Source of the DNA: Candidatus Omnitrophota bacterium
GTDB lineage: Bacteria > Omnitrophota > Gorgyraeia > 2-01-FULL-45-10
NCBI GenBank assembly: GCA_026387175.1
Contig: JAPLME010000010.1
Span: 62,096-126,095 of the forward strand
Direction of reading: 5' to 3'
DNA length: 64,000 bases
The position numbers and the translations under genes are program-made. Below the pieces are notes generated by a model. The model ran no database searches, was not told the DNA's origin, and saw only the letters and a program-made list of their open reading frames with translations. Positions 1 through 61,689 of the stretch are shown here, one piece after another; positions within the stretch are counted from its first letter, which is position 1; each line of letters starts with the position of its first letter.

Positions 1-3000
1 ATAGAATCCACTATGCGCTATGGTATCACTGATATAGTGACAGGTGCCCCCCTCGCGCAATATTTCGACGCACGTGGTAACGCGAAATACCAGATTACTA
101 CAACCTCAAACCAGTTAAATATTACGGGCGATATAGCAGAGGCGCGTTTCCAGATGGTCGATACGACTCAGCGTGAAAATATTAAATTCGACGACCGTGG
201 CAGGGTCACTTCATATAAAGAAACATCCATAGACGGCGCGACGAACGGCAAAGTTATCACAGAGTCTGTAAATACGATCACCGGCTATGATTATAAGAAT
301 AGGACCACGGCGATCGAGTCGCTCGCGCACAAACATGGCGAGGATGTTGCTACCGGTGAGATCCTTGACGAAACATCCTGGACGAAGCGGGAGATCCTCG
401 AGTATGACTCGCTCGACAGAGCAATAAAGTATGACGAACTTTCGAGAAGCACCACTACCGGAGCTTCTCTTATAAATGGAAAGCTCGATGGAGGCATCCT
501 TGCCACAAAGAATACGACCGGCGTGGAGTACTATTTTAACGATAGCATGAAATCATACTGCGAAGTAACCTCTGCGGATAATATCGATATGAAGACCGAG
601 ACATTACGTTATGACATGAAGTATACCTATCTGAATCAGCTCATCTCCGACACCGAAAAAGCCCATCAGCATGATATAAGAGCCGATCTTACAGTCATTG
701 TCGATATCACAGCCATTACCGAGAGAAGCGGCATGACCTACAATGCTGTGGGCCAGATGACGGAATTCCAGGTTAAGTCCTGGTCGACGGCGGCTACAGA
801 TAGCGTAAGCACCGTTAAGACGACTGGTATGACTTATAATCAGCTAGGACGCATGATTGACTCGACTTCAGATGAGACTACCGGGAATGTTGCCGGAGAG
901 GCGATCAGCCGTATCGAAAGCGCGCTCCAGGGCTTTGACATTCTCACTCTCGAAGAGAAGAACGCGAAACTCGATGAGATAGGCGGCGCTCTCGGCCTCA
1001 AAAAAGGTGATATCACAGCCCGCAAAGCTCTCATAGACATGGGCGTCGCAAACTTTATAACAAGACTTAAGTCTGTCGGGGCTTTTGTCCTGAACTGTGC
1101 CGCCGCCGCTCTCACTTATATACTGGGAGCGTTCGGTAAGGTCCAAGCGGCCTACGAGACCATAAAGAGCCTGATCCTTACTGATCTCCTTACGGGCGGT
1201 ATCAATCCGGCAAATCTCACCGGCGCGATCGAGACATCAATGTACGCCATTATAAAGACGGCCCAGAAGAATGGCCTTAAGTTAGCCGGTGGAGCTGTGG
1301 CTCTCGACAGCCTTATAGGGATTGTGAATACGGTTAATCCCGTAATAGGTGTATTTATGAAAGGCGCCGAGACACACTATGTAGCTATCATCTATATTAC
1401 GCAGACCGTTATCAGCTACGTAGAGTCAGGACAAGTAGTTACGGTCGAGCGAAGCGAATTTGTAAAGCAGTATCAGTATACGGGAAAAGTTATCGCTAAT
1501 GAGGATATGCTTCGCGCAGACGAAATCCTGAATAATGAGGAACAAATTAAAGCCATTCGGGCGACAAAGAGCGCGGTCGAAGAGATAAATCCATTCACTA
1601 CCATAAAGACAACGACCGTGAAGACCAATATCCAATATACCAATATACAGACGGGCCTGGCGACCACATGGCATGAATATACCACGAGCGATAGTTCACC
1701 CGATAAAGTAACCAATGCCGATGTCGAAGCGACCTATAACGACAAAGGCCAGATGCTCAGCTATCGTACGCGTATGACAGAGACGGGCATTAACGGCGAG
1801 CTTGGCAAGTTAGAGAGGTCTTACAGCTTCCTTAAGAACAATTTCAGTTACGATCAAGCAACGGGGCAGGCCTCGCAGTGGCAACAAACCACATATGCGG
1901 ACACTCAGTCACCGGATCTTGTGATAGATTCGACCGTTGAAGTTACTTATGACTCGCTGCTACACATGGCTACATATACTGAGCAGGGCCATAAGAAGAG
2001 TCTCACTGATGAAGCTATATATAACGAAGCTTATACGCTAAAAAAGACAGAGCTTGTCTACAATGCATTCGGCCAGGCAGTATCCTGGACCGAAAAATCG
2101 TCATCAGATCCAGCCTTTGATCCCGCCCTCAATAAAGTGACCACAACAAAGGTCGTTGTCGAATATGATGATCTTGGCCGGACAGCGAAGAAGACAGACA
2201 ACATTAGTGAAAATGGCCCTGGCCTTGACCATACATATACCATAGTAAGCGGGATAACGGGTTATGACGGCCTAGGCAGTGTAAAGCGTGTGACTAAGAC
2301 CACGACCGATGGCGATAAGATATCGATCGAGAGCGATACGGAAGATAAAGAATATGATAGCCAGGGCCGTCTTGAGTATTCAAGGACGGACGTAACCGAG
2401 AAGTCTAAGGATGGCATTAGCCTTAATCACAAATATGCAGTCGAAACTTTCATGAAGGACATTGCCGGTGTTACACAATACTACAATGACCTTGGCCAGA
2501 TCCTCAAAATGAAGCGGGTTACCATAGATGACGGCAAGATTACGACCGAGACTGACACAGAAAACAGGACATACAATTCGCTAGGGCAGTTTAAGTATTC
2601 AAAGGCTGCAATTAGAGAACAATCTAAAGATCTTGTCAGCCTTGACCATACCTATACACAAGAGATGTCGGCAAATGAGTATAATTTGCTCGGCCAGATC
2701 AGCATTATGATCCGTACCACCGTTGATGAAGGTAAGACGACTACCGAGATCGATAGAGCGAAAAGGACCTATACAGAGGCTGGCCAACTCAAAACGTCGG
2801 ATGTTGAAATCACGGAGAAAGGCGGCGCGCTTGATCATATGTATAGGACTTATACCGATATTCAATTATATGACGGCCTCGGCCAGGTTGCGCGCATGAC
2901 CCGCACCACGACCGATGACGAAAAGCAAACCGTAGAGGCTGATGACGCCGTTGTCGTAAGGACCTATGACTCGCAGGGCCGTCTTAAGCATTCGAAGACC

Positions 3001-6000: not shown

Positions 6001-9000
6001 CTCACGACGGTCAGGACCATGTCGGATATAGTATATGACACACTTGGCCTGATGATTTCATATAAGGATGCGGTAACCCAGAAGTCGTATAATATTAACG
6101 GCGATCCGAATTCTGGGATTAAATTCAATACCACGGATACCGTTATAGGTTATCATACGTCAAAAGATAAAGATGACGCAGGGAATCTCACAGGATACCC
6201 TCTCGGAGGCACGGTCATATCAAAATCGGATATTCAGGGTGATGTCACAACCTGGGTATATGACGCGCGTGACCGGCTCGTGAAGATCCAGAATCCGGAC
6301 GGCAGCATAACAGAGTACGTCTACGATGGCGACACCACTCTTATCAGGAAAGAGATCTACACTCTTGCCGATGGCAAAACAAAGACCACTAAAGAATATG
6401 ACGCAGACGGCAGGCTTGTGAAAATAGCTAACCCTGACGGCACCACGATCACATGGCAGTATGACACATTGGATAGGCTGAATATAATAACTGACGCGGA
6501 TGGCATGACTTCTACTTACACCTACTATGGGAATACTTCGATAATAAACTCGATCGAGGATTGTGATAAGAATAGCAGCGTCGTTAAGAAACGGCAGGTC
6601 TACTCCTATTATGACGCTTCCAGAAATCTTGTCGCAGCTGTAAATCTGACCAGCACCTCGGCATATGAAACTTATACTATAACCGAAACTGATCTCGACC
6701 CAGGCTACCTCTCATTCGGCGGGAGCGACTATCTCCAGCTTCCTCTCATACAGTTGAAACAGAATGGCACTATTGCGATGTGGGTGAAACTGAGCAACAC
6801 AGGTGACATGGATATCTATGGCGATGATGCATCAGGAAAAGGCGGCGGCCTGCAGGTGAAGGATGGATTTTTCTGTAGTGTTGTGGGTGCCAATAGATGG
6901 TCGACCGGTGTAGCGGTGGCGGCCGATAAATGGTACTACGTTGCGCAGGTATTTACCAGTACATCGACCACGACTTATATCTACGACGCTGATGGTAATA
7001 AATTATCGGGCGCGACAAAAGCCCTCGCCATTACCCAACAAAATCCGGCTGTCTGTCAGCTCCAGGTAGGAAGATCCTCGACAGACGTTGCTTTAGGCCT
7101 TAACGGTTTCAAGGGACAGATCGATCAGCTTGCGATATATAATACGGCGCTTTCAGAACAAGAGATGGATATGGGTAGGTATTCCGAAGGATCTGCCAGG
7201 AGCATGACCCAGAAGCTTATGGCATTCTATTCGTTCAATGATGGCACCGCGACCGATCTGACCGGCAATAAATATAACGGTTCATTTATCGGAGATCCGT
7301 CTTTTGCCATGGGGGCCAGGCCTGGGGTAAAAACCAGCTTTACTGCCGATCAGTATGATAAGAATGGCACATATATAAAGTCCTATCTTCCTGTTTTTGG
7401 GAGCTGCCCCATAGCTACGGCTGCGCTTTGGCCTAGCGGATGCTGGTCTCAGTCAGGCTTGCAATCGTTTTCTGCAGGTAATGTGAACGATGGAGGCAGC
7501 AGCATCGCTTTTCATACAGACTCGGCTGCTGTTGGTTCATGGCTTACACTAGATGCAGGCTCCGCAAAAGCGTTTACCGGAGTTACGATCTGTTCCGGAC
7601 GATCGATCCAGCCGAATGTTTCCAAATGGGAAATCCAATGGTCCGATAACGCTTCATCGTGGACTACAACAGGAGATAAAATCGATCTTAGCACCAATTA
7701 CGGTGGTTGGGTGGAGGCGCGATGGGCAAGTACCGCAGGCGCCCATAGATATTGGAGATTATATAAGCTGAATGCAGCCTCCGGCGGCGATTATGTCAGA
7801 GAAGTTCAATTCTTTACAGGGACCGATAAATATGCCAATGCCAATCCTGTGTCGAACACCGCCTTTGTTGCGTCCCCTGCGCCTGTACCGCCGATAACTA
7901 CCGGGCCGATTGGACTGACAGTAACTACGCCGCAGGCGAGCACTGCTTCTTACCCGCCGCCGGTAGTTACTTCGGTGCAGGAAGATCCCAACACCCCCGG
8001 TATCCTTCTTGTCACCTGGGGAGATAAGGGCGGCACAACGCAGACGCAGCGAAAATTTGACTTATCGACAAAGGATTATGTGCTGAATCCTGATGGCACT
8101 ATCTTCGAAACATCGATAGCTTTACCTGCCTTGGCTCCGTCAGATACTCAGACCCTTAATCTCGACGGCGGCGCTTCCATAAAGTATTGGGACCAGCCGT
8201 ACGCAGACGGCGCGTTTTACGTAACCGCATACCAGAATTACGATAACAAGGGTAATGCAGTAGGCGAGGTGCAGTATATCGGCCAGGCGCGTTCTTCGTC
8301 CGGGACGCTTCCTGTCATGACAAAACTGTCCGATGGCGGTTTCGCGCTCGTAGGGTGGGATGAAGGCAAAAAGGAGCTATACTATACCGAAATTTCGCCC
8401 AAGATGAGCGTCTCTTCGAATACCTCCCGCACGGATATCAAGTATGATATCCTGGGCCGTCTCATGACATATACCGATGTATCGAGCTCCTCCGCCTCGC
8501 CTGACCTTGAGACGACGACCGATAGGTCGGAGACCAGATACAATGCCCTCGGCCAGGTCACCTCATATATCGAGACGACGGCGAGCAAGGAATATGGCAG
8601 CGCTATATATCTTGAGAATACTAAGAATATGAGCGCTATCACATACAATACCCTCGGTCAAATGACGGAATATGTGGAGAAGAGCCACGATATCAGTACC
8701 GCTCCCGCTTCGGAGAAGATGCTCCTTGACACTGAGACCACCACGACGCGGACCATAAAGACTTATGATAAACAGGGCCGGATGACGGAGTATACGGATG
8801 TGATCGCGCCGGTGAGATCGAATGATGCCGATATTTCCATGATCACTACGACTAAGACCGTAAAGGATATAACTTACGACCCTTCGATCGGAGGCATGAG
8901 CGGATATCATGAAGACTCCAATGATAAAGGCGGCATGGTGCGAATGGATGATGGGAGCGTTACGTACGCGCTTGACATTACAACGACGACAGACCGATCC

Positions 9001-12000
9001 GGCGTCATATATAATTCCCAAAACCAGATCGCCGGATATACGGATAAGATCACGACAGACGGCGATACAAAGATCGAAACTAAGACTATTTCCGGGATGA
9101 AGTATTCGCGCACCGGACGGTCGGCCGGAAGCGTTACAAAGACGCGTGAGACCGGATCCACCGTGTTGGACGGCTATACATACGCGCTTGATTCTACTAC
9201 GACTACCACCCAGACCGATCTTGTTTATAACAAACTGGGGCAGCTTACTAAATATACCAATGTGACGATCGCCGATGCCGCCCCTGAGCGTGCCACTACA
9301 CTATTCATGAAGAATATCAAGTATGACGTGACGGGCCGCATTATAGACTATGACCAGAGTACAGTTGAACGGGCCTCTAATACATATGACCTTAACGGCG
9401 ACGGGGTGCTTGATCAAGGCGATCTTGATGCCCTGACAGAGTATATGGTCAATAAGGCGAAGGCAGATCCGGGGTATGGATATTGCCGCATCGATATCAA
9501 TGGCGATAACAAGATCGATGCAATTGATATCGATATTATCAAGAGTGCGTTGAAACCCTTTAGCGAGGGCGGTTTTGATATGGATGGGAACGGCTATATC
9601 GACGATATGGATAAACAGATATTCAGTCAAAATCTGATGGCGATCATCTCCGAGCACGCTAATATTCAGGGTCCCATTTATGACCAAACCACTCTCGCTC
9701 GTGTTCCCGAAGATACTACGGGGAGGCAGTTCGTCTGTGATGGCTATCTTACCGGAACTAATTATAAGGTCTATGTCGATGGAATAGAGCAGGCCCAAAC
9801 CGGTGTATATACGGTGAGTGAAGCAGATGAAAAAACTACCATCACCTTTAATGCACGAATAAATACCAGCAGTACAGTAGCTCTTAGTCGGCTCATCCAT
9901 GATGCGCAGCCCGGATGGGATAAGCGCTTTGACTTGAATGGCGATAATAAGATCGACCTCTCCGACCTCGAAGAGGCGTCAAAGAGGATACTGGAAATTA
10001 AAACACTCCTTATAGAGAAGTCCAAGGATATAGATTACCTTGCTCTATCTACGAGCGGTAAATATGACCTGAGTTATTCCGGAGGCGGGTACGACCTTAA
10101 TAACGATGGTTATATAAGCGCTGATGATATTAAGACATTCTTCGCGACCGTTACTGTTGATGGCCAACAGATGCCGCTCTACCAGGCATGGCTGCAGGAT
10201 ATGATGGGGAGCGTTGTTCTCAAAAATCCCTCCGGGGGTACGACGGGTAATCAATTCGTCACGAACGGCTCTCTTTCAGGAAAGCTTTGCACTGTCTATG
10301 TCAACGGGGTTGCTCAGGTGCTGAATTCCATCGCATCTAACGGATATACAGTGCTTGAGACAGGGACAGGAAATAATATCGTCAGCACAATTACCTTAAA
10401 AGCAACTATAACTGATCCAAATGCGAAGGTAGAGCTCTCCGTGCGTAAGCTTGAGAATAGCGTTACCCTTGCCAGCGTTTCCGGAGATACCACCGGAAAG
10501 CAGTTTACCCTAGACGGCTCTCTTGCGGGAAGGCTTTACACGGTCTTTGTCGATGGGACAGCTCAGGTTCTGAACAGCGGATATACGGTGAGCGAAATGA
10601 CGGACAGCACTACACATGCTGTTACCACCACGATCACCTTCACTACTGCGATACCCATCGGCAAAACAGTGAAGCTCTCCCAATGGGTGACCACGCCTGA
10701 CAATATCGCGACGGCTAACCTGAAGTCAAATCTCCTACCGCTCTACGTTAACACGGTAAAGGATGGCAAGACGGATGAATTAATGGTTGAAAACCCGTAC
10801 CTTGAAAGCCTTGCTGCCCAGATTAATAAAGTCATAGCGCAGTGTTTTAACATTAAAGCGACAGCACAAGGCACTCCTGGCACGTTTAACTTCTCCAGTT
10901 ACCTGTATTCATTAGCTAATGCTAAATATAACATCACGCTTGATAAGGTAATAGGTACCGGCGATGGATCGACCACGAGATTTGAGACCGGCCTTACGCT
11001 CGCAGATAAGAGCTATCAGATTTTTGTTAATGGTCAACTCAGTAAGTCGACCAGCTACACTGTGGATAGCGCTGGCGCTGTAACTTTCACTGCGGCTCCC
11101 GCCTCCGGCCAGGAGGTCAAGATATCGATTACACAGGTAAGGGAGAATAAAGATATAGGCCCCGGTAATGGGTCGACCAAGAAGTTTAATATCGGCTATC
11201 CGATCGTAGGCAAGACGGTCAATGTCTATGTGGATAGCGTGGTGAACGGCGTGGTAGTGAGCAGTGCGCTAATGGCTAACAACACCTATGACGTTGACCC
11301 GATTTTAGGTACCATTACTTTCAAAACAGGTACTCCGGCACCGCCAGCCAATACGAAAGTCAGGATAAAAGTGGACAATTATGACTGTTCCGTTGATGAC
11401 GCCGCCAAGACCATTACCTTTAACAATAATATTTCTACGTCTGGCATGGATGTCATGATCAAGATCAATAGCTCCGTAGGCACACTTTCCGCCCTGGATA
11501 TCATCCAGACTTTTGACAGCAATGGCAATAAAGTCCTCGATATAGCCGATGTTAATAAGCTATGGAACGACTGGAAGAAAGGAAATTTCGTATTACCTGG
11601 AGACCCTACTGATACTACGGGTGCGGGATTTAGTGGTATTTACGCCCTGGAGCTGGCAAAGTTCCTCGGCGGCGGGCAAGCTAATGGCGCTATCTCCGGG
11701 GTGCTCGATACATCCTACAGCTTTAAACAGGGAACCGCCGACTTTATGGCATTGCTCTCTCTGAGTTCTGGCTTATGGGCAGCGACGGACTATTTAGAAT
11801 TATTGAGCAGGTTCAAAGGCTTCACCAATATTGCCGTGTATGACAGTAATTCCGATAAACAGATCAGCGCAGTAAGGGATACTATTACGGGAAAAACAGC
11901 TGATGAGACCGCGTTTAGTAATCTTATACAGGATCTTCTGTATAAGAGCGGAGTAATAAAGAAAAGTAGCCTCGCCAGCGATGACCCGCTTCTTAATCTT

Positions 12001-15000
12001 AATGTCAATAATGACGACGTGATCAGTAAAGCCGACTGGGATGTTTTTGGCACCCTTATCGGCAAGTACAATAAGACCACGGACGGCCAGATCACTGCGG
12101 AAGACGCAACGGCTACTCTTATTTCTGTGGGAAGCGACGGCAAGAGTTTTGCGCTGCCCTCGAGTTACATGACGACATATTCACTGAAAGGGAAAACCTA
12201 TAAAGTCTTCAGCACTATAGGCGGCACATCGACAGAGATAAAATCAGGTTATACGCTTGACAGCACAGGCAGGATCATAACATTTGCTACAGCGCCTGGC
12301 GCAGGAACAACCATCACGATAGATTTCGATGATAAAGCGACTATCACTACCCTTCTTAGCAATTATGGAGCGGTAATTAAACCGAGTGATATAACCACAT
12401 ACCAGGACGCGATAAAGGTGGCGCTGCAAAATAGAGGATCTTTGGCGAGCGGTCAGACCGGATATCTGCTCGCTTACGATAGAAATAATGACGGCGTGAT
12501 CGATAAGTACGATATCAGCGCGAATGACAAGATCATTGATCAGCTTCTCACGTGGAATGGCGGCGCTGTTACAAACGATAAATTTGTTACCTGGGGACCG
12601 GTTACATCATCATCCGGCGTCTTCTCACAGCTTCATTGTAAAGGGTATGATATCGGCGCTGACGGCGTCATATTTATTGATCCAAAGAATTCATTGGACC
12701 CATCGGATCCATCTAGATATTACAGCATACCTGGCACTGACTATGAATTTACCTATGCCGATGATATCGCCTGGGCAAAGATCACTCAGGCCCATTTCGG
12801 AGACGCGACCCAGGCCGATAGGATCGAGAAATATATATATCTGAGTGAAATACCCGACTCATTTATCAGGAATAATCCCGCGTTTGTCAATCTGACCGAT
12901 ATAAACCAGCTTAATGTTTACCAGTACGGGACAAGCACCACAAAGATCATCACCCAGAAGGACATAGATCTTCTGAAGAAGGACTCATCAAAGAAGGCGT
13001 GGGGTGAAGCGCTTGAGAATTATTTAAACGGAGATACGAAAATAGGGGTTGGCAAGGATGGGAATTGTGTATTTGAATTCGATAAATCTTTGCTTGGATA
13101 CGCTCCTGATGGGAATAATCCTTATGAGATATACGTAAACGATACCAAAGTCACAAATTATACCGCAACCGTAGGCACCAGCACTGTAACCATAACCTTC
13201 ACCGCCGCACCGGCAAGCGATGCGGCAGTGAAGGTGAGGGTGCCCGGTACGGGACGCTTCCATCTGGGGATCATCCTGGAGGACGACGCCCAGTCGATGC
13301 GGTTCCTGGGCAAGGATTACATTACGTTGGGGTATCCGACACCATCGACCGGTTTCGGTCTAAATGAAATTGATAAATCGAGCGCCTGCACGATCGAAAC
13401 GTGGGTCGAATTCACGAATCTTAATACGGCCGGCGATCAGGTCATATTGAGCCAGGCAGATAACGGGAGTGGCCGTGCCATATGGCTAGGGTACAACAAT
13501 AATATAACTACGCCGTCATCCAGCAAGCTGAAGTTCTCTTTCCATGGTGTAACCGCTGAGCTTGATATGAAATTTATCCAGGGCGATTGGCATCATATTG
13601 CCGCGCAATATAACCCGAATGTCAATAGGGCCAGCGGCGAGGCCGGCGTGATCACGTTCTTTATAGATGGTGAGGTCTATGCGCCAAGCCGCTACCAAGT
13701 TGGCTCCCTGGTCCAATATGGAGGTTATCTCAATAAGAATATAATAGTGGGCGCCGATATCGTAGGCGGAGTGGCGACGAACGGATTTAAAGGGTCTATA
13801 GATGAGCTCGCCGTATACTCTTCAGGAGCGCTCACTGCCGCGGACATAAAGAGCCATATGGATAATAAGCGCAAGACGGATCCTTCAACAGGTATTGTCT
13901 CAGTTACGGATACGAGTATGCTGGCATACTATTCTTTCGATGACGGCTCTGTTCGTGACCAGACAGGGCATAGGAATGACGGGTCAATCGCCGTAGGTTC
14001 GACCACGGCCGGCGGGTTTGAGACAGATGTCTTCTGCACGCTGAACCAGAAGAAAGACAGGCTCCTGTTCGACAAAGATGGTGACGGTATTATAGCTATC
14101 TATAAGACATACGCCGGACCGACCGATACGGTCGGCACGTTCCTCGGCGCCCTCGATCTTGTCCCATCGTATGCGAAACTCATCGCTCCGAACTCCGGCG
14201 CTACTTTCATGGTGAGCCAAAAGATGCGGGATATCAATGGCAGATTAATCGACAATGTTCGCTGGGGTTCGGTCGCGCATTTAGACCTTAATGCGGATGG
14301 CTGCGTCTCTATCGATGATACAAAATTCAGAGGCGTTATGGAGAGCTCTGTAGCCAACTATGTCACGTTCACTTATCCCAGCGGCTCAGATATTTTCAGC
14401 GAGCTTTATAAGCATTATGACGCGAATGGCGACGGAATTCTGAGCGCTGTAGATGATGAAGCGGCTTTCTGGTCGAAGGCAAACCTTAACGATGTTAATT
14501 GGGGCGATCCGGAGTACCGCTGGCAAAGCGAGGATGTCGTTTCCCAGGCTGATATAAATACACTGAAAACATATATCTCTACTTATGGCAAGGTGACAAA
14601 GACTGGCGGGTCCTACCGGCTCAAGTATGATATTAATAAGGATGGTATCGTGGATGGTAATGACCTGACCAAGCTCGAGGAGCTTATCTCTACTTACTTT
14701 GATTACCAGACAGATACCGGCAGACAAAATATGAAATATAACGATCTCGGCCAGCTCATCGGTTACGAGGAAACCTCTACCTCCAGCACCGATTCTATCA
14801 CAACGACCACAAAGATGAAAGAGATGAAATATGATGTAAAGGGCAGGATGCTCACTTATATTGATGAGTCACATGAGGCTCTTAGTAAGATTACAGGCAC
14901 ATATACTGATGCCAATGACGTCAAGGTAACATACACAATAGGTAATCTGGCTTCATTGGATGAGTTTAAAAATGTTGTCGATGAAAATGGTATTACAAAT

Positions 15001-42000: not shown

Positions 42001-45000
42001 GCGGGAGGACTCGACAAGAAGGTCTTTAATGCTCTCAAAAACAGGATAGAGAGCGCCGACGTAACCACTCAAGATATAGACGGAATACAAAATGGCGCCG
42101 CAGCCATTAACAAGAAGTTATCTGAAAAAGATCAGATTAAGCTCACGGATAAGGAGATACACATCGCGCTGATAACGATGAATGATAAAGAGCTTGCGGA
42201 TATCAGGAATAATATAGGTAATCCGGACATAAACGCCAAGAATATAACCGACACGATCAAAATGATCGATGCTGCGGTAGGAGAAAAGTTCAGCAGTACC
42301 CAGGTCTTCATGATGCTGATGAGGATGAGCGAGACAAAGCTCGATAACTTCATATCGCACATAGGTGATGCGAGGATAAACGCCGAAAATGTAAATGCTT
42401 TGGTTGACAAAGCTCAATCCGCCGCAGGAGTTGATCTTTCTAAGATGCAGGCCTTCATGATGCTGATGACTCTGGACGATAAGAAGCTCGATAACTTCAT
42501 CGCGAACCTGGACAACAAAGCCATAAATAGCGGCAGTATAGGCCTTGTGGTAAAGATGAGCGGGATTATGGGCAAGGGGATATCCAGAGAACAGGCCTTC
42601 TTCATGCTGATGTCGATGAGCCCATCTGCGGTGGGGAGTTATCTCGCTGGGATGAGGGAAAAATATGAGTTCTTGACGAATAACCAGGAAAAGATACAAA
42701 ACTACCAGAAAGCTCTTACTGAAGTAACTGGCAAAAAAGCTACACTGGCCCAGGCAATGCAATACGCTATTAGGGCTGGAGAGAATCCGCGGGACACTGC
42801 ACTTTCAAAATACGGCACTTTAGAAATGATCGGCCAAAAACTTCTTGATCAAGATAAGCTTGAAACAGCCATAACTACGGCGCTTAGTTCCTCATTGATG
42901 TTGGATCCGACGGCCCAGCTTGTGGCTGCGCTGACGGATACCTTAAGCAAAGAGTTAAAATCTCCCGCGCTTGAGCCCGGAGTGGAAAAGGCGTTATATA
43001 CTCTTCGAGCAATGAGGCTAGATGAATATGCCCTTCAGGCAAACGAATCCAATAAGGCACAAACATTATTACCAGGTACGAGAGCGGATGCGGCGCTTCA
43101 GTGGTCGGCGGCTGACGGGAAGTCATTTAATCTTGGAGGAGATGATTTTGGAGCTTTGGTTGATTCGCTCAAATATGTCGGCCAGGTAATACAGCTTGAC
43201 GCCGTAGCATACAAATTCTCAGCAGAGATCCAAACATGCCTGGTGCAGAAATTCGGGACCGACATCAAAAATATTGTATCAGGGATCTCTATTGCTGCTG
43301 TGATGCGAAGTTCCGAGGTGTCTGATGAAAAGATCATCGCCGCGTTTTCCGACCAGGCAGTTCAGGCAGTGCTCTATGGTAGATCCGCCGAGATGAGCAT
43401 AGTGACGGATGCGACCGGTACTTACCTGAAAGCCGTGCTCGATTGTTCAGCGAAGCCGATTACGTCAATGGTGAACGGCAAAGAGCTCCTATTCTCGAGC
43501 ATGCTGAGCCCTGACGGGATGACTTCTACGCCATTCTTATCGTTGCGGCTCCTTGGGAACGGCAGCTGGCAGACGCTCAATAGCATGGCCGCCGTTACTA
43601 ATGAAGCGCTTAATTCGGCTGATAAATCGACAGGCATATATACCCTTAATAAAAATGCTGTTATCCGTCTCAATGCCGATGGTGGCATGAATATCGCGAA
43701 TGGCGTGCTTACCCTCGAAGGCAGCGCATATATAAATGCGTCTGTCGAAATGGGTGGTATTGCAGTGGCGAAAGGTCTCCCCGGTAAAGGCGGGGCTGGT
43801 GAAGTGCAGACGATCCATGTTACCGGTGATGGTATTCTATATAATGGCACTATCACTATTTCCGATGACAGGGCGGTGATAACCGAGAAACAGGTCTTTC
43901 TGTTAGACAGCGGCGCTTCCCTTACCGTTCATAATGGTGACATCACAAAAGAATATAAAGTCGATATCTGTATGGTCAATGGCGATTTGCAGCGTTTAGA
44001 CTGGGCGGTTCATGGTGTGACCGCTAAACAGGAGATAGCAAAATTCCTAAACAATCTCCTTGCTGGCGCTCTCGAGATAAGGATGGGCACAGATGCTATA
44101 CGTAGCGGCCTGGGAGATAATGCACCCATAGATTCAAAAGCCATTGAAGCTCTCGCAAAAGGAATCGCGAATAATGATATCGGATACAAGGAGGCATTGG
44201 AAAAGATTTCCGAATGGGGCAAGGTCTTCAAGGTAACGGAATTTGGTACTGCCGCCGATGGCTTCGCGGGTTTAGTCACGGATAGCGGCGCAAGCTACGA
44301 TCTTGTCAAAGAATTTAATGCCAGATGCGTCGATATATCGGCTATGTTCGGGGTAAAAAATGCGGAGACCCTAAGAACGGATATGAGAAAGATGCTTGTT
44401 GAAGGAATCGCTTTGGCGGAAAAAGCCGTGGCCGCAGAAAAGTATAAACCTCTCTCTACCGATGATTCTGAAAGATCCCTGACGACTTATCGAGGCGCTC
44501 TTGCAAGACTTGATAGTGGTGCGCCGTTATCAGAAGTGATGGATATAGTGCGCTATGTCTATCATTCTTCGCTATTCGGCGGAGTAAGCCGGGTAAGCGT
44601 CGAAGATGAGCTTGGTATCGCAAAAGTGGGTATGAGTACGGATGGAGTTCTCGATATGGCAAGGAGTTATGAAAGAGCTATGATCGGTGGTGACCTTGTT
44701 GGGGCTTTTGCCATCCTGTCGAGCGAAAAATACAATGCGGCAGTGCAGGCGGTAACGCTATTGGGTGATGAGATAGGTCAGGATACTGCGCGCCGTATCG
44801 CTTTCGGGGACGATAAGAGTGCCAAGATGCCCACGATAGATCAGCTTACGAATGCGATCATGTTAGGCGGAGAGAATGCCCTTCTCGCGAAAACAAAGGT
44901 GGAGGAGATAAGAAGTAATAATGAGCTCTGGGCAGAGTCGAGATCCACGTGGTGGTATCAGGCATCGAGCGCCCTGATGGGCAAGCAATATGAAAAAGCG

Positions 45001-48000
45001 GATAGCTGGGATATCGCGAAGGGTGCGGCGAAAGGAAGCCTGGCTATAATTGCTGCTACGACCATTTTGGTCCTTTCAGGCGGTACTGCTAGCGTTGCGC
45101 TTGGGACGTTTGGTAATTTCATGCTGGGTGCGGCTTATGTAGGCGCTGGGGCCATGGCACTGAACCTTGGCGCATATACTGCATACGGGATGATTACGGG
45201 GCGTGATCTTTATACAGGACAGCAGGCTTCAGCGTGGGGCGCGATCGGCGGAGCCATTGGTGGTCTTGGCGAGGGATTTGCATTTGCTCTCGCGTTCCAA
45301 GGCGCTGGTGCGCTTCTGGGCAATTTCAGCAAAATCGCATCAGCTGCTGAAACTGGATGGAAAGCATATGCTGTGCAGGGAGTTACCTCCGGCTTGATGG
45401 GTGGCGTTATTAACGTCGGAAGAGAATGGCTTACTAGTGGAAATGACTACTCAATATTCAGTAAGGAAGCGGCTCGAGACTTTGCCATAGGATTCGGGTT
45501 AGGCGCGATCGGTGGATACCTCGGAGCTTGGGGCGTTAATTTCGTGAACTTAGGAGGGGCTGCCCATACAACTATCCAGACGTTGGTTACAGTGGTTAGT
45601 ATGGGCATTGTAAGTGCCATAGGTGGTCTTATCAATAGAGCTTACTTCGGAAGCCAGGGCTGGAAGAGCGGCCTCGGTAACTGGAATACCTTATTAGATT
45701 TTGGCTTTGGGGCGAGTATCGCCGCTGGATTAAAGCTTGCCAGTGCAGGGCCAGCAGGCGCTTCAAGATTTATAAATTTTGCCGGAGTTAATGGCGGTTT
45801 CTGGGGAAGCATGAATGGCGCTATCGCAAGGACGCTTATGGTGACCACATCCTCGATTGCGATAAGCATTTTCCACTACCGTGACAAGATTTGGGTAGGT
45901 GAAGATAACGTTTTCAACTCCTCCAACTTCCTGCTTGCGGCAGCGAATGGCCTTATTACGGGCCTATTCATCTCATATATCTTAAGTCCGCGCGGCATTG
46001 GCCATTTGGCAGGCAAGGAAATCGGTGGTGTTAAAGATGGCGTGGCCCAGAAGATCATCAAAATTACAGATACTACCAGCGCAAATATCACGTGGTGGCC
46101 TGGAAAGACACTACCCATTAATTTCCCTGGTGCAGGTCTTCTTGCGGAAGGCATCAGAGGCGCCATGGTATTCACATTTATTAGTCCAATGTTCTATACC
46201 TTTAATACGCTTGTGTGGAATCCATTGATCAAGGGTGAAAAGACGGGCTGGAGTTGGGAGCAGTTTGCGGCAAGCATACCGCAAGGATGGATCTCAGGGT
46301 TCTATCTACAGCCTCTGATCAGTATATTTACCATAGAGCTTACCCGTCCCGAAGGCTTTGGGCAAGTCTTTACGCAGAGTGGTCTTATAGGCAAGGCGAT
46401 GGCGATAGGAGAATATGCGGTATCATGGATGAGGGGAAAGGCATTTGCTGCTACCGAAGATACTCTATGGATGAGAGGTATTGCTGCTCTGGGCGGGCGT
46501 GTAGGTGCCGGTATAGTCGCGCTTGATCAGTATGCGTGGATATCCGGTTTTGTCACGGGAATAGATGCCGCGCTGGATCTTGTATCGGGTCAACGACTCA
46601 ATCCTCTCACCGGCAAGCCTGAGTCCACGGGACACATCGGTTTCTCGCTAGCCTCCAGAGAGATTCTCTCGTGGGCCGCGCTATTTATACTGCCGATGGT
46701 TAAATATACGGTAGAGGCACAAATAAATATCGCTCTCAGGAGCCTTGACAGGAGCGTGAAGGTTTCTTCCGCAGAGAAGGCAGAGTTCTACAGCTTTGTT
46801 GCCGGTATACGGGAACTGCAGGGAAAGGAGCAGGTGAAAATATTAGAAAGCCTTGCTAAATACGGAGAGACAACTTTCAAGGATCATGCAGGCAGGTTTG
46901 TTTCATATTATCTTAAAGAAGGCATGACTCCTCTTGCTACGAACGAGCTCATAAGGATGGGATATGGTGAAAGGAATTTTGAATTCCTGAGAGATCTCTG
47001 TTTGAGTGACGTGACTAAGCCTGACCAGAATATCAAAATCGAAGGTGTTGACATTAGTATCGATAAGTATATGTCCGGGATAGGGGACTCCCTCTTTATA
47101 ACAGCTATCGCGAATTCTGGTATTAATCTGAGAGATCTATGTCTATCGATCGATCCAGGTAAGATGGAGACGCTTGGTACTGTATTGGACAGGATGCAAG
47201 ACGTGCCGGCTGTTTCCGAAGCCCTCAAGGACGTTACGCTGAGAATGGATGCCCAGATGGCATTAGCAAAACTTGCGGGCCTCGAGACCGCATTTGCGGT
47301 AAACGCGCAACGCAGAGAGGAATATGTAATTAAGTATAATGAAGCGGTGCGTGAGTCAGGGTTAAAGCTGAGCGATGGTGAATTTACCAATGAGCAATTT
47401 GATGGTAGAGCTGTTGAGCAGAACCTTAGGGAGAGAATAAAGTTTGCCCAAGATGCTCAGGCGCGAGGAGAGAAAGTTGATGGGGCTGAGCTTATGAAGA
47501 TGAAAGATCTCCTGACAAGGCTGGATGTTATGAGAGGAGAATATGAGAATATAACCTTCGTTGTCATTGGCAAGGAGAATATTGCCAATTTCAGAGAAAA
47601 GAATATGATCGTCGAAGAAGCGTCGAGCGGTAAAGGCAATATGGACTATATACTCCTCGAAGGCGCTATCGAGAATCTTATCAGATTCAATCAGGATGAT
47701 ATCATGAAGCCGCAGAAGGAAGAGACGGAGACGAATAGAGGCTTTGCTAAAAATTGGGAGAATTTCACTATTCTGATTAAGGACGGACTCAAGGGTGGTT
47801 GGGGTAAGATGATGGAATATTTCACGGAAAAGAAGTTTACCGAGGCTAATGTTATCGAGGTCTTTGGCGGCAAGTTGTCAGGTGATTTCATCGAGCAAAA
47901 AGGTAGAGAGCTTACTGGTGGGCAATTGGTGAATGGAAAAATCGTTGGCGGGAAATCAGATGCCGATGTTAATGGTAAGAATGCTATAAAAGGTGATGCT

Positions 48001-51000
48001 GCGCGCATTATCATGAAGGATGCCCTTGGAAGGCTTCAACAGCAGATGGAGATACTGAGAAGCGCAGGTGACACCAAGTCAGAAAACTATAAGGACCTTA
48101 ATTGCATGACTAGAACGCTCAAAGAGTGGATTGAGTGCAGTGAAATTATGGGCGATGGATTTGCCTTACAGCCATCTCAGTTGGCATATACCTATCTTAT
48201 GGCTCGTTCAAAATTAGCTCAGATGGAAGGGAAGAATATAGGCCTTCCGACGTTTGTAGCAAGGGTCGGTGCAGGAAAGATGGACGGAAATATCATTGGT
48301 TGTTTTATCGCTCTGGGCATGTATAAAGAGGCGACCGGTAAGGGCGCGAAGATGGTAATCATTGTCGATGCATCCAGGACGGATCTTGTTAGTCAGAATA
48401 TTACAGTTGCTGACAGCATGAAACTTGTCCTAAAACTCGCTGGCAGGGGAAGCTACGAAGATCTTGCAGTATATAAGGTGGCTTCCAATGAAGGCGCAGG
48501 CGGCAATGTGCTGGCGCATCAGGCGACCTTAGGTAAGGATACTGCCGGGAAAGATGTGGTAATTATTTCGGAGGATGGCATAACTGATAAGAGCAAGATT
48601 TCTGAACAGGCTATGTTTTTCGCGACGACAAGGGATATCCAGGAACAGATTGCGCGAAGTAGAGATGGCCAGTCAAGCCTCATGACCGAAGGTTTTCTCG
48701 ATAGTCTGCATATAGATGAGATCCAGAATACGATTGCGGCAAATGACCTCATTAAGAGCGCGGGACACGATCTCTATAAGAGGTTGCAGGTGCTTTCGCC
48801 TGACCTTGCGGCCAAAATAGAGTATCGTTCGAAACTCATTGACAGTATGGTCAGATATGTCGCAGGAGTTCTCGATGTAGAAGGTGACTCGTGGGACGCG
48901 GATGTATTGAGACAGGCAGGGCTTATTGAAAGTGTCAAGGGTGCCGCCAGAAGGACATTTACACTCAATGAGGCCTTGACCGGGAAATTAGAGAATATGG
49001 TAAAAAGTGACTCACTATTCAGCGCATATATTAATGAAAAAGGTGAGCTCAGTTCAAGTTTCCATGATTTTATCAGAGAAGTGGTGACATCCTGTCTCAT
49101 GAATGACAGAGAATATTATAAAGACGATATGCGGCAGGCTTATGTGATGACTGATGGGGATAGTGGAATGCCTATGCCTAATACAATATTCGGTGATAAT
49201 CTTAGGGCTGCCTGCGTGGCGGCTAAACATGGCTGGGGGATTGAAAAGATAGCGGATTCATTGTTACAGCACTCTTACATGAATGTTTCGACCGCTGATG
49301 TGATAAAGGCGTTTGGTGCATGGAATACCACGGGAGGCACTGGTACTGCTGAAGGCACAAGAAAGACTATAGAGAATATCAATGATAAAGCGCCAGGCCA
49401 TCTTGCCAAAGCCACCACAGAGACGCCGCTCATCAATAATTACCATTTACTGAGAAATGGTGAGGATGCGACTAGAAATGAAGGAGCTGTCCAGGTAGGT
49501 GAGAGCATTAAACGAGGTACCGATGCAATAGCTATTACAAGTGAATCGAGGAACGTTTGCTATGACATGTATGGCCGCGTGAAAGACGCGTACAAAAATA
49601 TGCCTGTCTATATTCTGATCAGAGGAGAGACAGATGGCGGTCTTACTTGCAGAATGGCGGATGGTAGTTATATGACGTTCAATGATGCCGTTAAAGATAT
49701 AAAGACCAGATTTAATGACGGCGAAAAGATGGTCGTTATTATTCAGGGTCTCTCGACAGGAAGTAACATATTCGGGCTGAGGGAAGGGGTCTCGAGAAAA
49801 GCGGACGTTATAAAACTTGGGCTTACCAGTTACGACAACCTGCGCCAGATAAGCGGTAGAATTAACGATGAAGGCGGAAAGCGTGCCCAAGGAGGGAATT
49901 TCATCCAGATAGTGAATATGTTTGACAGAGATATTAAGGATTCCGAAAAAGCGCTTTTGAGCGATCTCGCCGAAAGCAAGGACCCCGTTGACCAGGAATA
50001 CCTTAAGCTAGCCATTATAGCTATCCAGTCGGAAATTAACATGGAGATCGATGAGAGCAGGCTACAGCAGTTCATGGAGAAGTCTGGTAATTCGCGGGCA
50101 AATATAGCTGAGAAGATGGCTGATATCAGGAGGAGCTCGGAAGGAATGCTGACATTGCAGGATGTGGTATCGAAGAGCATACCGGTCACAGTGGCCGGTA
50201 TAGGAATGATCCAGGGCATATCTCCAAGCGGTAGTAATGCATTGACAAATATGATGGTCGATATGACAGAGTCGGGAGGTGTAGATCTGGTCTTCAGGAA
50301 CAGGAACATAAACGGCGCTTACGATGATATTGTCATCGATGCGGTAACCGGCAAGGTTGATTCGAATACGCGGCTTACTTATGATGGTGCGGTCTTTGTG
50401 AAGAACGTGATTGCCGCCAATAATCTCTTAAGTGCCGCCGCGGATGCCCGTCAAGCGATTGCATTTGCCCTAAAGGATGCGGGGGTAATGACAGATGGTA
50501 TTACGACAGCTTTGGGTAATTATATAGAAGTAGAAAAAGGCGGTTCCACTGGTGTTAATATAGATGCAACGTTAGGGCTTGTAAAGGAACTGCGTACAAA
50601 TGGAATCTATGACGGCATTATGCCCATCAGCGTTCTGATAAATAACCTGGTTGCAATCGGAAACTTCTGGGGCGGTATCAAAGCTATTTCTAACACAGGG
50701 CATACTATGACGAAGGATGAGATAACTTCGATGGTAAAATCTAGTGATATCAGGCAATCTTTTGTGGATTATTGTGGGCGGATCGGTATAGAGACAGTAT
50801 TGATTAATGTCCTTAAGAATAATATAAAGGCAGAGAGAAATTTGCGTTTTATTGAAGAAAATTTGGCGACCGCTATCAAAATTTACGGACCGCAATCGCG
50901 CGAGGTCAAGAGCTTGCAGACCCAGGTTGAAAAAGCCCAGAGTAGCCTTAACATGTACACGATCTCGGTCAGGGAGTTCTTAAAGAATCAGGATCAATAC

Positions 51001-54000
51001 GGTCTTTCGGCAATCAAGCTCTTCGTTAGCAATTCCATTACCGATGAGGAGATGAAGGTGCTTACGCAGATGGCCGAGAACCTTGAGGCGCGTAACCCCG
51101 GAATCATTGCTCAGGTCTCGATGATCGACCTCTACAATATGATGAAGTCGAACGGCACGGTCGAGTCTCTCGAGAAGTCTAAGGCGAAAGCTCCTGTGAT
51201 ACCGGAGCTTAATGCGCGTAAGTACGTAACAGTTATGCTTCCGAAGCTTGGATCGAAGACGTTCGCCATGAGCCTGGAAAGCGCCTATAACCTTATTACA
51301 GGTAAGAGTGTCGCGGGCATGGGCGTCACCGCGGTGATCAGTGTTGCAGTCGCAGGACTAGCGATCGGTGGAATAGTGATGCCCGCGATCATCATTATGA
51401 GCCTCAAAACTATTATTACCGCGGCGGCCGAAGCGGCTAATTACCATTATAGCCTAAAAGTTGCCGAGGGCGGCGCGATTATGATGAAGACCGCCGGCAT
51501 ATTCATCCGGGAAGTAATGCAAGGCGCTATATCAACGTCACTTTACGTATTGATGCTCGGATCAGGTTTCAACTCGCTCGGCGGCTTGGTGTTCGGTGGA
51601 TACAGCCTGGTGAGCGCGGCTCTCTCGTCCGTGAAACAGTCGCTCGGCGAACTTACTTCTTCGCCTATCATCAATGCGATCCTCAATACACTCTTTGTGA
51701 AAGAGCCGGTGGCAAAGACTGCAGTGACATCGAAGGCACAAAAAGCGTCGAATATTGTGCGTGACCTAAAGAAGGCAGATAAGCTTGATTGGAAGAATAT
51801 TATGGACAAGGCGGGCGTTGATAATGAACTTTTACTTCAGATAGTTATCCTTCTGGCGCCAGCGGCGGTTGCCAGGGATGTCGAACGCATGGCAGCTGTT
51901 GACAGTATTCTTCCGAACGCGGTAGACCAGGCACAGGATGTGAGGAATGGCATAAGCGTTTCCGCAGTACTTGCGTCGCTCGCAGCCTATGCTTCAGACC
52001 GAGATGCGGCAGCATCCCTTATCGTCCCATCCATCCTTAAAGGCATAAAATCGGTGAACGCCACGAGCATTCAGCAAGTTGCCGATACCTTAGTAATCGA
52101 CTTCGGTATTGATAAGGCTCAAGCAAAACTTATCGCATACCGGTCCCTCAATTCGAACTACAGTGAATCCGATATTTACAAAATTGAAAATGCCTGGAAA
52201 GGGAAATTTAAGTTCTACGCAGAGAAGACCGGTATACCCGAAGATGTATTCGCAAAGGCCTTTGGTACCGGTGATATGTCGATCGAGAAGATTGAAGCGT
52301 TTATCAGTATTCAGGGCTCTCTCTCCGGGGTTGCTCCGGAAAATATGGGCTTAAGCCGCTTTATGCAGCTTGCCGAAAGTAACGGTATACGAGGTCCTCC
52401 TGAGTTGATAAAACTTGCGATATTCCTTGGTATCCAGCTTCCATTAGAAGTAAAATCCGCAGTAGAGACGGGCAAGATGCTTTCCGCTGATGCCAGAAAT
52501 CTCACGCCGGTGCAAAACGCTATTAGTGCATTAAAACTGAAAGAGAAGTTCGCCGCCATAGAATCTCTGAAAAAGGCGTTCGATGAAGTTGATAAAGGCT
52601 GCGAAACGACGCTTGCCGAAAAGATCTCATTTAATAAAGCGATGGAGATTGCGTTATCGGATGATCCTGCCGCGGCATTTCGTAAGTACATATCTGACAA
52701 AACAGACGGTAACATTAATGATCTTATTAACGCGAGCCTCGCTATGGTCAGTCGAGGCGATATCACTGATCAGAATATAGGGCCGCTCGTTGATCTTGCC
52801 GCAGGTATGCAGGTAGCGGGCCCCATGTCCGCAGACCTTGTCAAAAAGCTTAATATGAATAAATTGGAACGGGATATAAATACCATAGCGTTCCTTGCAG
52901 ATCCTTTTAGGAAAGATATTCCGGTGTCGGCCTTCTCCTTGAGCGGGTATTTGGCCATTGTTTGTTACAACGATGCTAATAGGTGGCTGGATATGGCTAA
53001 AGATCTGTCGAGTCCAATCTTACCTGAAGATAGGAAAGCTTACGCCAAAGAGGCTCTGGTGACATTTGAAATTGCCAGGATAGTTTACGAAAAGCCTGCT
53101 CTTGGGCAGATAACCGAATCAGAAAAACAGATTCAAGATCTTGAGAAGATGGGCCAGAATAATCCCGAATACATCGAACACATAAAGAGCGCAATCGCGC
53201 GTTTACGCGATAGGATCAAGGAGCGCCGGACAGAGGCCGACTCTGGTGTTGAGTTTATATTGTCGCCCACGTTACAAGCGCGCTTGGTGGCTGATCAGCC
53301 GGCGCTGACGGATAGCATTGCAAAAGTGTTTCAAGCTAGGGATGGCAGGCTGTATATAGCCGACTTAGCCAGCATTGCCTTAGAAAGCGTTATTCCCGGA
53401 GCGATGGTAACTCCCGTTGTGATAAAAGGGTTATCAGAGGAGAAGCGGAAAGAATTTGAAAAAGCGTTTGTTGACGCAAGTTTAATATGGAATCCCGAAG
53501 TGGATACGGCGCAGCTTACCATCCGCAGAGATAATTATCTGGCGGCGCTCGAATGGGTTGATATTGCAAAGGATTATGCTAAAGAGAAAGACTTTAGCTC
53601 GGCGCTTGGTGCCCTGAACGAAGGGATCTTGCAGAGTCGCTCCGATGTGCTCGGGAATGACAGCGTAAGCGGCTTAACGAAAGAATGGACGATGCAGTCC
53701 TTGTTACAAGATAAAGAAAAGCGAATAGCGAGCGCTAAGGTATTGAGCGATATGGCCACAGAATTTGCGGGCATTGGCGATTACATCATGGCCGTAGAGG
53801 CGCTTGAACAGGCGGCGGCATTGGATGCCAGGATAGTCGCTAACGCTGATTGGCAGAAGATGGCCAAGGAACAGGATGCGAATAACTGGATAGCTATTGC
53901 TATTGAATATGCCTCTAGTGGCAAAGATAAGTATGCCAGGGCGGCCCTGAAAGAGGCGAAAGATATACTCGGAAGCCGTGCGGCTGAGGTTATTGTCGCG

Positions 54001-57081: not shown

Positions 57082-57725
57082 AGAAATACGCATTCGTTGT
57101 AGCGGTGGTATTTATATGCACAAATGCCTATGCGATCGATTTTCCATGGTCCAAGCCGCCCCAGAAAAAAGATGCCGCTGCGGATACGGCTAAGCCGGCA
57201 GCTCCGGCAAAAGCGGTTGTTGCTAAGCCGGTTGTTCCTGCGGCTCCTGTAAAAGCAGTTGCTGCCGCGCCGGTTCAGCCGGCAAAGGCCGCTGTTGTGG
57301 CTCCCGCAGCCCCGGCGAATGCGACCCAGCCCGCTCCGGTAGTAGCGCCCCAGAAAAAACTCACCAAGGAGGAGATGATAACCCGCATTACTGAGGTGCT
57401 GAAGAGTCGTCCGAACCTGGTCTCCGTTGTCCAGGGGCTTGTGGCGACGCCAGGAGAGGACGGCGTTACAATCTATACATATAATGGTAAAAAGTTGGCG
57501 GATCTCGATGAGGATACGCTCTTCAAGATCCTCTCCCAAATAAATCAGCAGATTTCGCTGGATAATCTTCAGAAACTAGAACGCCAGCAGAGACAACTCA
57601 AGAATCTTCAGCAGATAGACCAAATAAATAAGACTCAGCGTATGCTGCAACAACAGCAGGCGCTTTCAAAGCCCGCGGCGCCTAAGGTCTATACGCCCCC
57701 TAAGGTACCCAGGACACACTATTAA
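57078..57725 (+). CDS. Secreted hypothetical protein: signal peptide, Ala/Pro/Val-rich low-complexity linker, and a C-terminal Gln-rich coiled-coil domain
   Basis: The ATG overlaps the lgt stop (ATGA at 57078-57081), indicating translational coupling. A strong AGGAGG Shine-Dalgarno sequence lies about 8 nt upstream. The N-terminus MKKYAFVVAVVFICTNAYA is a typical signal peptide. The linker is repeats of PA(A/V)PAKAVVAKP. Confidence 0.7.
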   Translation: MKKYAFVVAVVFICTNAYAIDFPWSKPPQKKDAAADTAKPAAPAKAVVAKPVVPAAPVKAVAAAPVQPAKAAVVAPAAPANATQPAPVVAPQKKLTKEEMITRITEVLKSRPNLVSVVQGLVATPGEDGVTIYTYNGKKLADLDEDTLFKILSQINQQISLDNLQKLERQQRQLKNLQQIDQINKTQRMLQQQQALSKPAAPKVYTPPKVPRTHY

Positions 57726-61684: not shown

Positions 61685-61689
61685 AAGCT

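Follow-up and report, generated by a model that had tools for sequence, protein, structure and literature searches.

Giant open reading frames (ORFs) of more than 20 kb are present in most Omnitrophia genomes and encode proteins with many transmembrane (TM) helices and large extracellular parts, in which discoidin (PF00754), laminin_G_3 (PF13385) and non-cellulosomal dockerin (PF00404) domains are found (Seymour et al. 2023, PMC10066038). The Dockerin-type giants were described as carrying dockerin/EF-hand, TSP3, discoidin and C39 domains along with a Rhs-like antiparallel beta-helix, in sizes up to 85,804 aa; the N-terminal majority of these proteins is TM-free and predicted to be extracellular, with TM anchors towards the C-terminus and divergent SecA domains after them (West-Roberts et al. 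2023, 10.1101/2023.11.21.568195). A later catalogue holds 916 proteins of at least 10 kAA (thousand amino acids), the longest of 147,155 aa, and its architecture clusters include dockerin, C39 and SecA_DEAD (Nielsen & Lui 2026, 10.64898/2026.06.07.730766). How cells make, export and use one polypeptide chain tens of thousands of residues long is unsolved, and the main test case that nature offers is the Omnitrophota giants. Here we describe a 64,000-nucleotide stretch of a Candidatus Omnitrophota genome (assembly GCA_026387175.1, contig JAPLME010000010.1, positions 62,096 to 126,095 of the forward strand; the whole stretch is hereafter the window) that is occupied over more than 56 kb by one uninterrupted ORF. 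The ORF belongs to the described adhesin-like, Dockerin-type giant ORFs, fitting on most tested features, and is thus of a kind already well documented. It is likely the 3' part, at least 56 kb long, of a gene for a membrane-anchored, glycan- and Ca-binding attachment fibre with an export motor in cis.

The window ORF encodes the same Pfam set of discoidin, laminin_G_3 and dockerin domains as the giants surveyed by Seymour et al., whose study is without sequence or architecture detail on a SecA-like motor, YD arrays or a C-terminal module. With the Dockerin-type giants, such as CAILPI010000004_73, it shares the phylum, dockerin/EF-hand repeats, a discoidin domain, a Rhs-like scaffold, repeated unannotated beta modules and perhaps a C39-like domain, for which the match in the window ORF is borderline. 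Like them, it has a TM-free N-terminal majority and TM anchors near the C-terminus, as judged by hydropathy, and a SecA-like domain, which here is recognized by fold only and is too divergent for PF07517. It differs from the Dockerin-type giants in having canonical RHS/YD repeats detectable by sequence and two Laminin_G_3 domains, and in what it does not have. In a Pfam scan run on 1000-aa tiles of the protein, no tile matched PF18884 for bacterial TSP3 repeats, nor was a TSP3-like motif found, and DUF1080, ILEI and GNAT domains were not detected; a PilZ gene is likewise missing from the 7.7 kb downstream. With 18.7 kAA within the window and the 5' end of the gene outside it, the protein is at least 'large' (10,000 aa or more), the in-window part being by itself shorter than the 30,000 aa that West-Roberts et al. 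set for 'giant'. The 39,678-aa protein of Velamenicoccus archaeovorus, which has been linked to attaching to or attacking other cells, and the Archaeovorins resemble the window ORF as giant multi-TM Omnitrophota surface proteins; they also carry SecA_DEAD-like and C39 domains. However, the Archaeovorins are rich in glycosyltransferases, methyltransferases, NUDIX and HEAT/TPR domains, none of which was detected in the window ORF, and never contain the dockerins that the window ORF has (10.1101/2023.11.21.568195).

An initial annotation of this DNA, made from its letters and ORFs, had already likened the gene to the giant ORFs of Omnitrophota. The comparison above supports that likeness, as do the proteins encoded downstream, which are identical to NCBI MCX5678596-603 (annotated 'MAG: Candidatus Omnitrophica/Omnitrophota bacterium', MAG being a metagenome-assembled genome), and the relatives of the motor among GTDB genomes, all of which are Omnitrophota. 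Its ranking of the gene among the largest bacterial genes known is outdated, as ORFs of 85,804 and 147,155 aa have been published from Omnitrophota, where those of at least 10 kAA number in the thousands. The published picture of the phylum is unchanged by this locus, and the residual interest lies in a SecA-like motor found by fold only and in the portable cassette that contains it.

The 56-kb frame is genuine and makes up the 3' part of a single giant gene. In frame 1 of the + strand, no stop is met between nucleotide (nt) 1 and the terminating codon at 56,242-56,244, giving a run of 18,747 sense codons (18,743 aa when counting begins with the first ATG, nt 13) whose probability by chance is about 1e-439 given the base composition. 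With the six downstream genes as the reference for codon usage, frame 1 scored positive and frames 2 and 3 negative in all 19 of the 3-kb tiles, so that the frame has, from end to end, the look of coding sequence native to this genome. Tandem Repeats Finder reported no tandem DNA repeats, and the longest dispersed repeats are 64-86% identical, with none above 86%, which counts against repeat collapse. The gene is also contained in Logan assemblies of two different runs, SRR20698638 (55,002 bp) and SRR25046533 (53,873 bp). In each it was called as an uninterrupted 17,459-aa product open at the contig start, and both contigs are 100% identical to the window across the 3' 9.2 kb of the gene, the portion fetched. 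The locus thus adds to the Omnitrophota giants a well-supported example, which is backed by two independent assemblies and whose frame is clean over at least 17.5 kAA.

Given two independent read sets, uniform codon usage and no tandem or near-identical repeats, it is extremely unlikely that the frame is an assembly artefact, that is, a chimera of several smaller genes or a product of mis-joined or collapsed repeats. In addition, the last ~3,700 aa are collinear with contigs of independent Omnitrophota MAGs. The observations that could favor an artefact concern the 5' part and the base composition. Based on their lengths, both short-read contigs start at window nt 3,864, amid YD repeats with a period of ~400 nt and inside a copy of the DNA repeat family D1 (nt 3,780-4,039). 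This YD-repeat DNA, with copies 61-86% identical, extends over window ~2,640-4,164; as both assemblies break inside it, doubt about copy number is confined to nt ~2,640-4,164. The 5' part is also without homologues to corroborate it: none were found for the first 560 aa of the window protein, and an exact 50-mer from the window start had no match in genome or metagenome contig collections. GC skew climbs from ~0.02 to ~0.2 across window ~34,000-56,000, with a change after nt ~40,000 that could count in favor of a chimera, but the rise coincides with the switch from a Thr/Asp/Tyr-rich beta part to an Ala/Gly-rich TM and helical part. The change in skew therefore tracks amino-acid composition and gives no sign of chimerism. 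The gene itself continues upstream of the window, since the first residues (aa 1-121) already match the within-protein profile of YD-type repeats. Accordingly, the two claims of the initial annotation on the frame, that it is uninterrupted over more than 56 kb and that the gene probably runs on past the 5' window edge, both stand. Neither the run, the protein nor the locus-tag identifiers turned up in a literature search. On the - strand, stop-free stretches of 341-539 codons lie within the giant gene (35,943-37,562; 37,986-39,197; 53,781-54,923; 23,422-24,447); these are probably shadow frames of a coding frame rich in G and C at third codon positions and not real genes.

The N-terminal part of the protein, up to aa ~11,300, is a mosaic of YD repeats, lectin domains and Ca loops (Table 1). 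Self-comparison and a within-protein profile recognize ~37 YD-like segments between aa 1 and 11,253, which from their arrangement appear to act as a connecting scaffold between inserted modules. The main array ends (aa ~2,055-2,192) in canonical RHS repeats, and it is there that a sequence search of the PDB matched Rhs cores of type VI secretion systems (T6SS) and nothing else (8qja, Tse15, Tse5, Tre23); NCBIfam adds YD_repeat_2x (TIGR01643) and a partial match to RHS_core (NF041261). Pfam finds exactly two Laminin_G_3 domains and one F5/8 type C domain. Dockerin_1 is above its cut-off in two tiles and EF-hand_1, EF-hand_6 and EF-hand_7 are above theirs in one, while a motif scan found 17 strict D-x-[DN]-x-[DN]-...-D loops of the dockerin/EF-hand type between aa 3,130 and 9,270. 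The YD/RHS arrays, the lectin set of two LamG domains and a discoidin, the dockerin-like Ca loops and, by within-protein profiles, the helical repeat arrays are thus all as the initial annotation had described them. The five-copy domain, the beta modules and the 50-aa helical units matched nothing in Pfam or among PDB sequences, and a profile built from four copies of the unannotated beta modules also had no match in the PDB. LPXTG and PEP-CTERM motifs are absent from the giant protein.

Overlooked in the initial annotation was a probable C39-like peptidase domain near the start of the window. Its match to PF03412 is borderline (E 2.7e-4, 21.2 bits against a cut-off of 22), and PDB sequences gave no match to the region. 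A motif scan points to Cys366 (NCAAAAL) and His459 (THYVAI) as candidate catalytic residues. The one strong hydrophobic stretch before aa ~11,000, at aa 358-379, is the putative catalytic helix of this domain; four other stretches in that part are weak and isolated.

The window ORF shares YD/RHS motifs and significant matches to Rhs core structures with the Rhs/YD polymorphic toxins and the BC components of Tc toxins. It could accordingly be read as a giant polymorphic toxin, in which a YD cocoon encapsulates a C-terminal toxin and delivers it in a T6SS- or Tc-like manner; the genuine RHS/YD repeats, which match T6SS Rhs cores and TIGR01643/NF041261, and the number of YD-like segments, ~37, speak for such a reading. 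We regard it as very improbable, as neither NCBIfam nor Pfam detects a Rhs-associated core or tip domain in the giant protein and the DPxGL autoprotease motif occurs zero times. Rather than forming one shell of ~1,200 aa, the YD repeats are split into many short segments, strewn over 11,000 aa with lectin, dockerin and other modules in between. A TM/SecA-like/HSHP cassette, not a toxin, makes up the C-terminus, and the next gene is lgt and not an immunity gene. A RTX adhesin or a MARTX toxin was rejected, with zero GGxGxD repeats, no RTX or MARTX Pfam families and no type I secretion system (T1SS) genes downstream. The view of the initial annotation that the protein matches none of these classical types is therefore upheld.

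Strong hydrophobic clusters occur solely beyond aa ~11,600, where hydropathy places four blocks, in agreement with the four separated glycine-zipper clusters of the initial annotation. All TM assignments rest on heuristics, namely charge-free stretches whose best 18-aa window has a mean of at least 1.4. No informative Pfam or NCBIfam match was obtained for aa ~11,600-18,747, the sole match being a spurious one to NuoC at 15.8 bits.

Between TM blocks 2 and 3 lies a domain that had also gone unnoticed in the initial annotation and that no sequence search detects as what its predicted fold resembles, a SecA-like ATPase motor. Pfam (PF07517 is absent even at E<=1), NCBIfam and phmmer against the PDB gave no link to SecA, nor did a nine-sequence profile searched against the PDB or a Pfam scan of every homologue. 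A word-indexed homologue search with the region returned nothing. An exhaustive HMMER scan of 1.84 billion protein representatives uncovered just 14 relatives, and among 185,579 GTDB species genomes there are three, all Candidatus Omnitrophota MAGs. An AlphaFold2 model based on an alignment of nine family sequences had a predicted local distance difference test (pLDDT) score of 72.7 and a predicted template modelling (pTM) score of 0.73. In a Foldseek search of the PDB with this model, ranks 1-25 were all SecA or SecA2, with a best E of 1.6e-15 and ~700-910 columns aligned; against 5eul_A, TMq/TMt were 0.49/0.52. Other superfamily 2 (SF2) helicases (MDA5, DinG, XPD) appeared only at E >= 1e-7, the SecA matches being ~8 orders of magnitude better. 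Given the model, the predicted fold of the domain is of the SecA type, and the domain is a putative ATPase.

The predicted fold aligns with near full-length SecA chains (3jv2, 1tf2, 5eul, 6itc and others), and the motor has an insert at the position of the PPXD of SecA. By eye, we noticed the motifs GAGKMDG (16,090), HIDEIQ (16,237), AAKHG, GGTGTAEG (16,446), QGLSTGSN and DNLRQISGRIND, among which are likenesses to the Walker A (GxGK), Walker B (DE[IV]Q), G-TGT-EG, QG-S-GSN and arginine-finger-region motifs of SecA. Within the family, no variation is seen at the Walker B Glu or at several Gly, Arg and Gln positions of the later motifs. In the Walker A of the window motor, Lys is followed by Met and not by Thr or Ser; P0013, a smaller relative, has a more canonical GEGK, and P0011 has GK-T. 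Unlike SecA, a soluble protein of ~900 aa, the motor sits between TM blocks of a giant protein, and at 11-15% identity to SecA it is invisible to sequence and profile searches. A SecA-like motor of this class can thus diverge so far that only structure prediction finds it. The same divergent motor is found in four smaller proteins of 756-2,039 aa (P0008, P0009, P0011 and P0013), two of which have N-terminal signal-like hydrophobic segments.

The C-terminal part of the protein, unlike the N-terminal part, has relatives. P0001-P0005 and L005-L007/L010, from other Omnitrophota contigs, are collinear with parts of aa ~15,000-18,746, with P0003 extending to the C-terminal module. In P0002 a TM block precedes the motor, and in P0001-P0004 TM segments follow it. 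On contig CAYZCP010000003.1 (L006, positions 213-14,388), P0003 and an upstream ORF across a 100-N gap make up a protein of at most ~4.7 kAA with no YD or lectin part; this cassette homologue is followed by AAA_14/DUF4143 and TPR genes. The motor also occurs alone, in proteins of 0.8-2 kAA. Collinear relatives, a carrier of at most ~4.7 kAA and stand-alone motors together mark the C-terminal part as a portable cassette. The family of the motor is small, with 14 representative clusters among 1.84 billion proteins, and the combination of anchor and motor is modular.

The end of the cassette is the 'HSHP' domain, which the initial annotation had pointed out and which is conserved in two other Omnitrophota proteins. 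Its closest relative, 72% identical over aa 18,283-18,563, is in a partial Omnitrophica protein of 703 aa (P0015), where the 413 aa upstream of the module are unrelated to the window protein; this is evidence for module shuffling among large Omnitrophota proteins. By BLASTP, the whole tail (aa 18,284-18,746) is ~30% identical to the C-terminus of P0003. E18382, H18429, H18431 and D18444, which form an E...H-S-H-P...D pattern, are invariant in the three known copies. Compared with the JAMM motif E...H-x-H-x7-S-x2-D, the Asp is at +13 instead of +11 and the motif Ser is found in P0003 alone. Fold similarity to JAMM/MPN is weak, and the module is possibly JAMM/MPN-like. Neither giant-gene preprint (10.1101/2023.11.21.568195, 10.64898/2026.06.07.730766) mentions JAB/JAMM domains.

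We tentatively raise the possibility, which we do not favor at present, that the ~3.7-kAA cassette is a self-contained portable engine for export in cis and anchoring that has been fused to very different extracellular arrays in Omnitrophota. Its parts may be a polytopic TM block, the SecA-fold ATPase, a TM hairpin, a helical region and the E..HSHP..D JAMM-like module. The partner of such an engine may be a fibre of at least 15 kAA here and, elsewhere, a protein no longer than ~4.7 kAA; the engine would have gone unrecognised so far because no sequence profile detects the motor.

If the window ORF encodes an attachment fibre as we favor, the C-terminal TM blocks would anchor the protein in the cytoplasmic membrane of the cell that makes it, and the SecA-like motor, in the cytoplasm, would help to thread, insert or export the giant chain in cis. 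The YD, lectin and dockerin fibre, of at least 11,000 aa, would project outward and show Ca2+-dependent binding to glycans on the surface of a host or prey cell. Processing of the polypeptide may fall to the C39-like and JAMM-like domains. Taken further, this processing could make the product a polyprotein that one or both of these domains cut into several mature surface and membrane proteins. That outcome would modify rather than replace the attachment fibre, with which it is compatible, and is rather unlikely, as both peptidase assignments are sub-threshold or weak and no cleavage sites are known.

Several points weigh against the attachment fibre. The motor is synthesised only after ~16,000 residues, which makes export of the N-terminal parts in cis hard to explain, and it might act on other substrates instead. 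As the first 15,000 aa have no detectable homologues, function is read from a few Pfam domains only, and the topology of the protein is read from hydropathy heuristics alone. TSP3 repeats and a downstream PilZ gene, both frequent in the published giants, are missing, and the C39-like match is slightly under the Pfam cut-off. Lastly, no signal peptide is visible within the window, the 5' end of the protein lying outside it.

The last of these points would also suit a scaffold that is tethered to the membrane but lies mostly in the cytoplasm, its large N-terminal part included, as in the 'TM-only' class to which 46% of Omnitrophota long proteins are predicted to belong (10.64898/2026.06.07.730766). 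A SecA-like ATPase, moreover, must be cytoplasmic. However, YD repeats, dockerin/EF-hand Ca loops, discoidin domains and Laminin_G_3 lectins are typically extracellular modules. The place where a signal peptide would be expected is beyond the window, and the N-terminal majority of the Dockerin-type giants is predicted to be extracellular (10.1101/2023.11.21.568195). Given the above, a cytoplasmic scaffold is improbable, and a surface attachment fibre remains the best explanation of the gene.

Table 1. Features of the giant gene and of the genes downstream of it, by position in the window.
Feature	Residues (aa)	Nucleotides	Strand	Basis and remarks
Giant ORF, open at the 5' window edge		1..56244	+	18,747 sense codons and stop
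YD/Rhs-like repeat segments	1-325	1..975	+	Within-protein YD profile, self-BLAST family; window begins mid-array
Probable C39-like (papain-fold) peptidase domain	~340-500	1018..1500	+	Pfam PF03412, borderline
Main YD/Rhs repeat array	502-2,192	1504..6576	+	Pfam RHS_repeat E 3e-18; TIGR01643; partial NF041261; PDB Rhs cores (8qja etc.)
Laminin_G_3/concanavalin-like lectin domain 1	2,239-2,388	6715..7164	+	Pfam PF13385 E 8.3e-15
F5/8 type C (discoidin) domain	2,488-2,598	7462..7794	+	Pfam PF00754 E 1.7e-8; PF22633
YD-like segments	2,742-3,139	8224..9417	+	Within-protein profile
Dockerin/EF-hand Ca-loop region with interleaved ~70-90-aa 'TTGxQF...VYVDG' beta modules	3,129-4,430	9385..13290	+	Dockerin_1 E 9e-8, EF-hand families, weak DUF2460, motif scan
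Laminin_G_3 domain 2	4,457-4,617	13369..13851	+	Pfam PF13385 E 1.5e-13
Dockerin/EF-hand loops	4,762-4,893	14284..14679	+	Pfam Dockerin_1 E 2e-5; motif scan
YD-like segments alternating with unannotated ~120-165-aa beta-rich modules	4,843-6,537	14527..19611	+	Within-protein profiles
Unannotated ~100-180-aa repeat domain, five copies	6,540-7,378	19618..22134	+	Self-BLAST; within-protein profile
Dockerin-like loops and a 50-aa helical repeat in two arrays (13 units in total)	Arrays 8,195-8,551 and 9,306-9,614	23875..28842	+	Pfam, motif scan, DNA families D2/D3/D6, profile
Final YD-like segments and beta modules ahead of the membrane part	9,628-11,253	28882..33759	+	Within-protein profiles
Hydrophobic TM block 1, ~6 charge-free stretches	11,603-11,827	34807..35481	+	Hydropathy (heuristic)
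Helical repeat array	12,620-12,918	37858..38754	+	Self-BLAST, within-protein profile
Helical repeat pair	14,005-14,207	42013..42621	+	Self-BLAST, DNA family D9, profile
Hydrophobic TM block 2	15,012-15,410	45034..46230	+	Hydropathy; region aligns with P0002/L005 and the 884-aa fragment P0005
SecA-like ATPase motor (putative)	~16,054-16,711	48160..50133	+	AlphaFold2 model and Foldseek; between TM blocks 2 and 3
Hydrophobic TM block 3	17,103-17,211	51307..51633	+	Hydropathy; homologues likewise have a TM segment after the motor
Last hydrophobic segment (block 4)	18,230-18,266	54688..54798	+	Hydropathy
Conserved C-terminal 'HSHP' module, possibly JAMM/MPN-like	18,283-18,563	54847..55689	+	Homologue conservation
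C-terminal alpha/beta tail, common to P0003, fold uncertain	18,564-18,747	55690..56241	+	
lgt (prolipoprotein diacylglyceryl transferase)		56,254/56,305-57,081	+	PF01790, E 8e-37; starts ~10-60 nt past the giant-gene stop
215-aa ORF, NCBI hypothetical NTY76_05745		57,078-57,725	+	Apparent N-terminal signal peptide; Ala/Pro/Gln-rich; 4-nt overlap with lgt
Tandem patatin-like phospholipase paralogues, 52% identical		58,230-59,465; 59,739-60,956	+	Lipoprotein-type signals, lipobox LSGC/ISGC
ArsR-type helix-turn-helix regulator, then proton-conducting Mrp/NuoL-like membrane subunit at the window end		61,355-63,513	+	Ordinary housekeeping context

A T2SS/T4P-like secretion locus on the upstream side, with PilZ and sugar-uptake genes on the downstream side, is characteristic of the Dockerin-type/adhesin class; the upstream side lies beyond the window. 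The 7.7 kb downstream of the giant gene encode Lgt, the 215-aa secreted protein, CspA, two patatin-like lipoproteins, an ArsR-type regulator and a Mrp/NuoL-like subunit; besides PilZ, genes for a solute-binding protein and for a T1SS are missing from this region. Neither Rfam families nor tRNAs were found in the 64,000-nt window. As no terminator-like site was found between the giant gene and lgt, the two are likely co-transcribed. The patatin-like pair could be secreted membrane-attacking enzymes that act alongside the giant protein.

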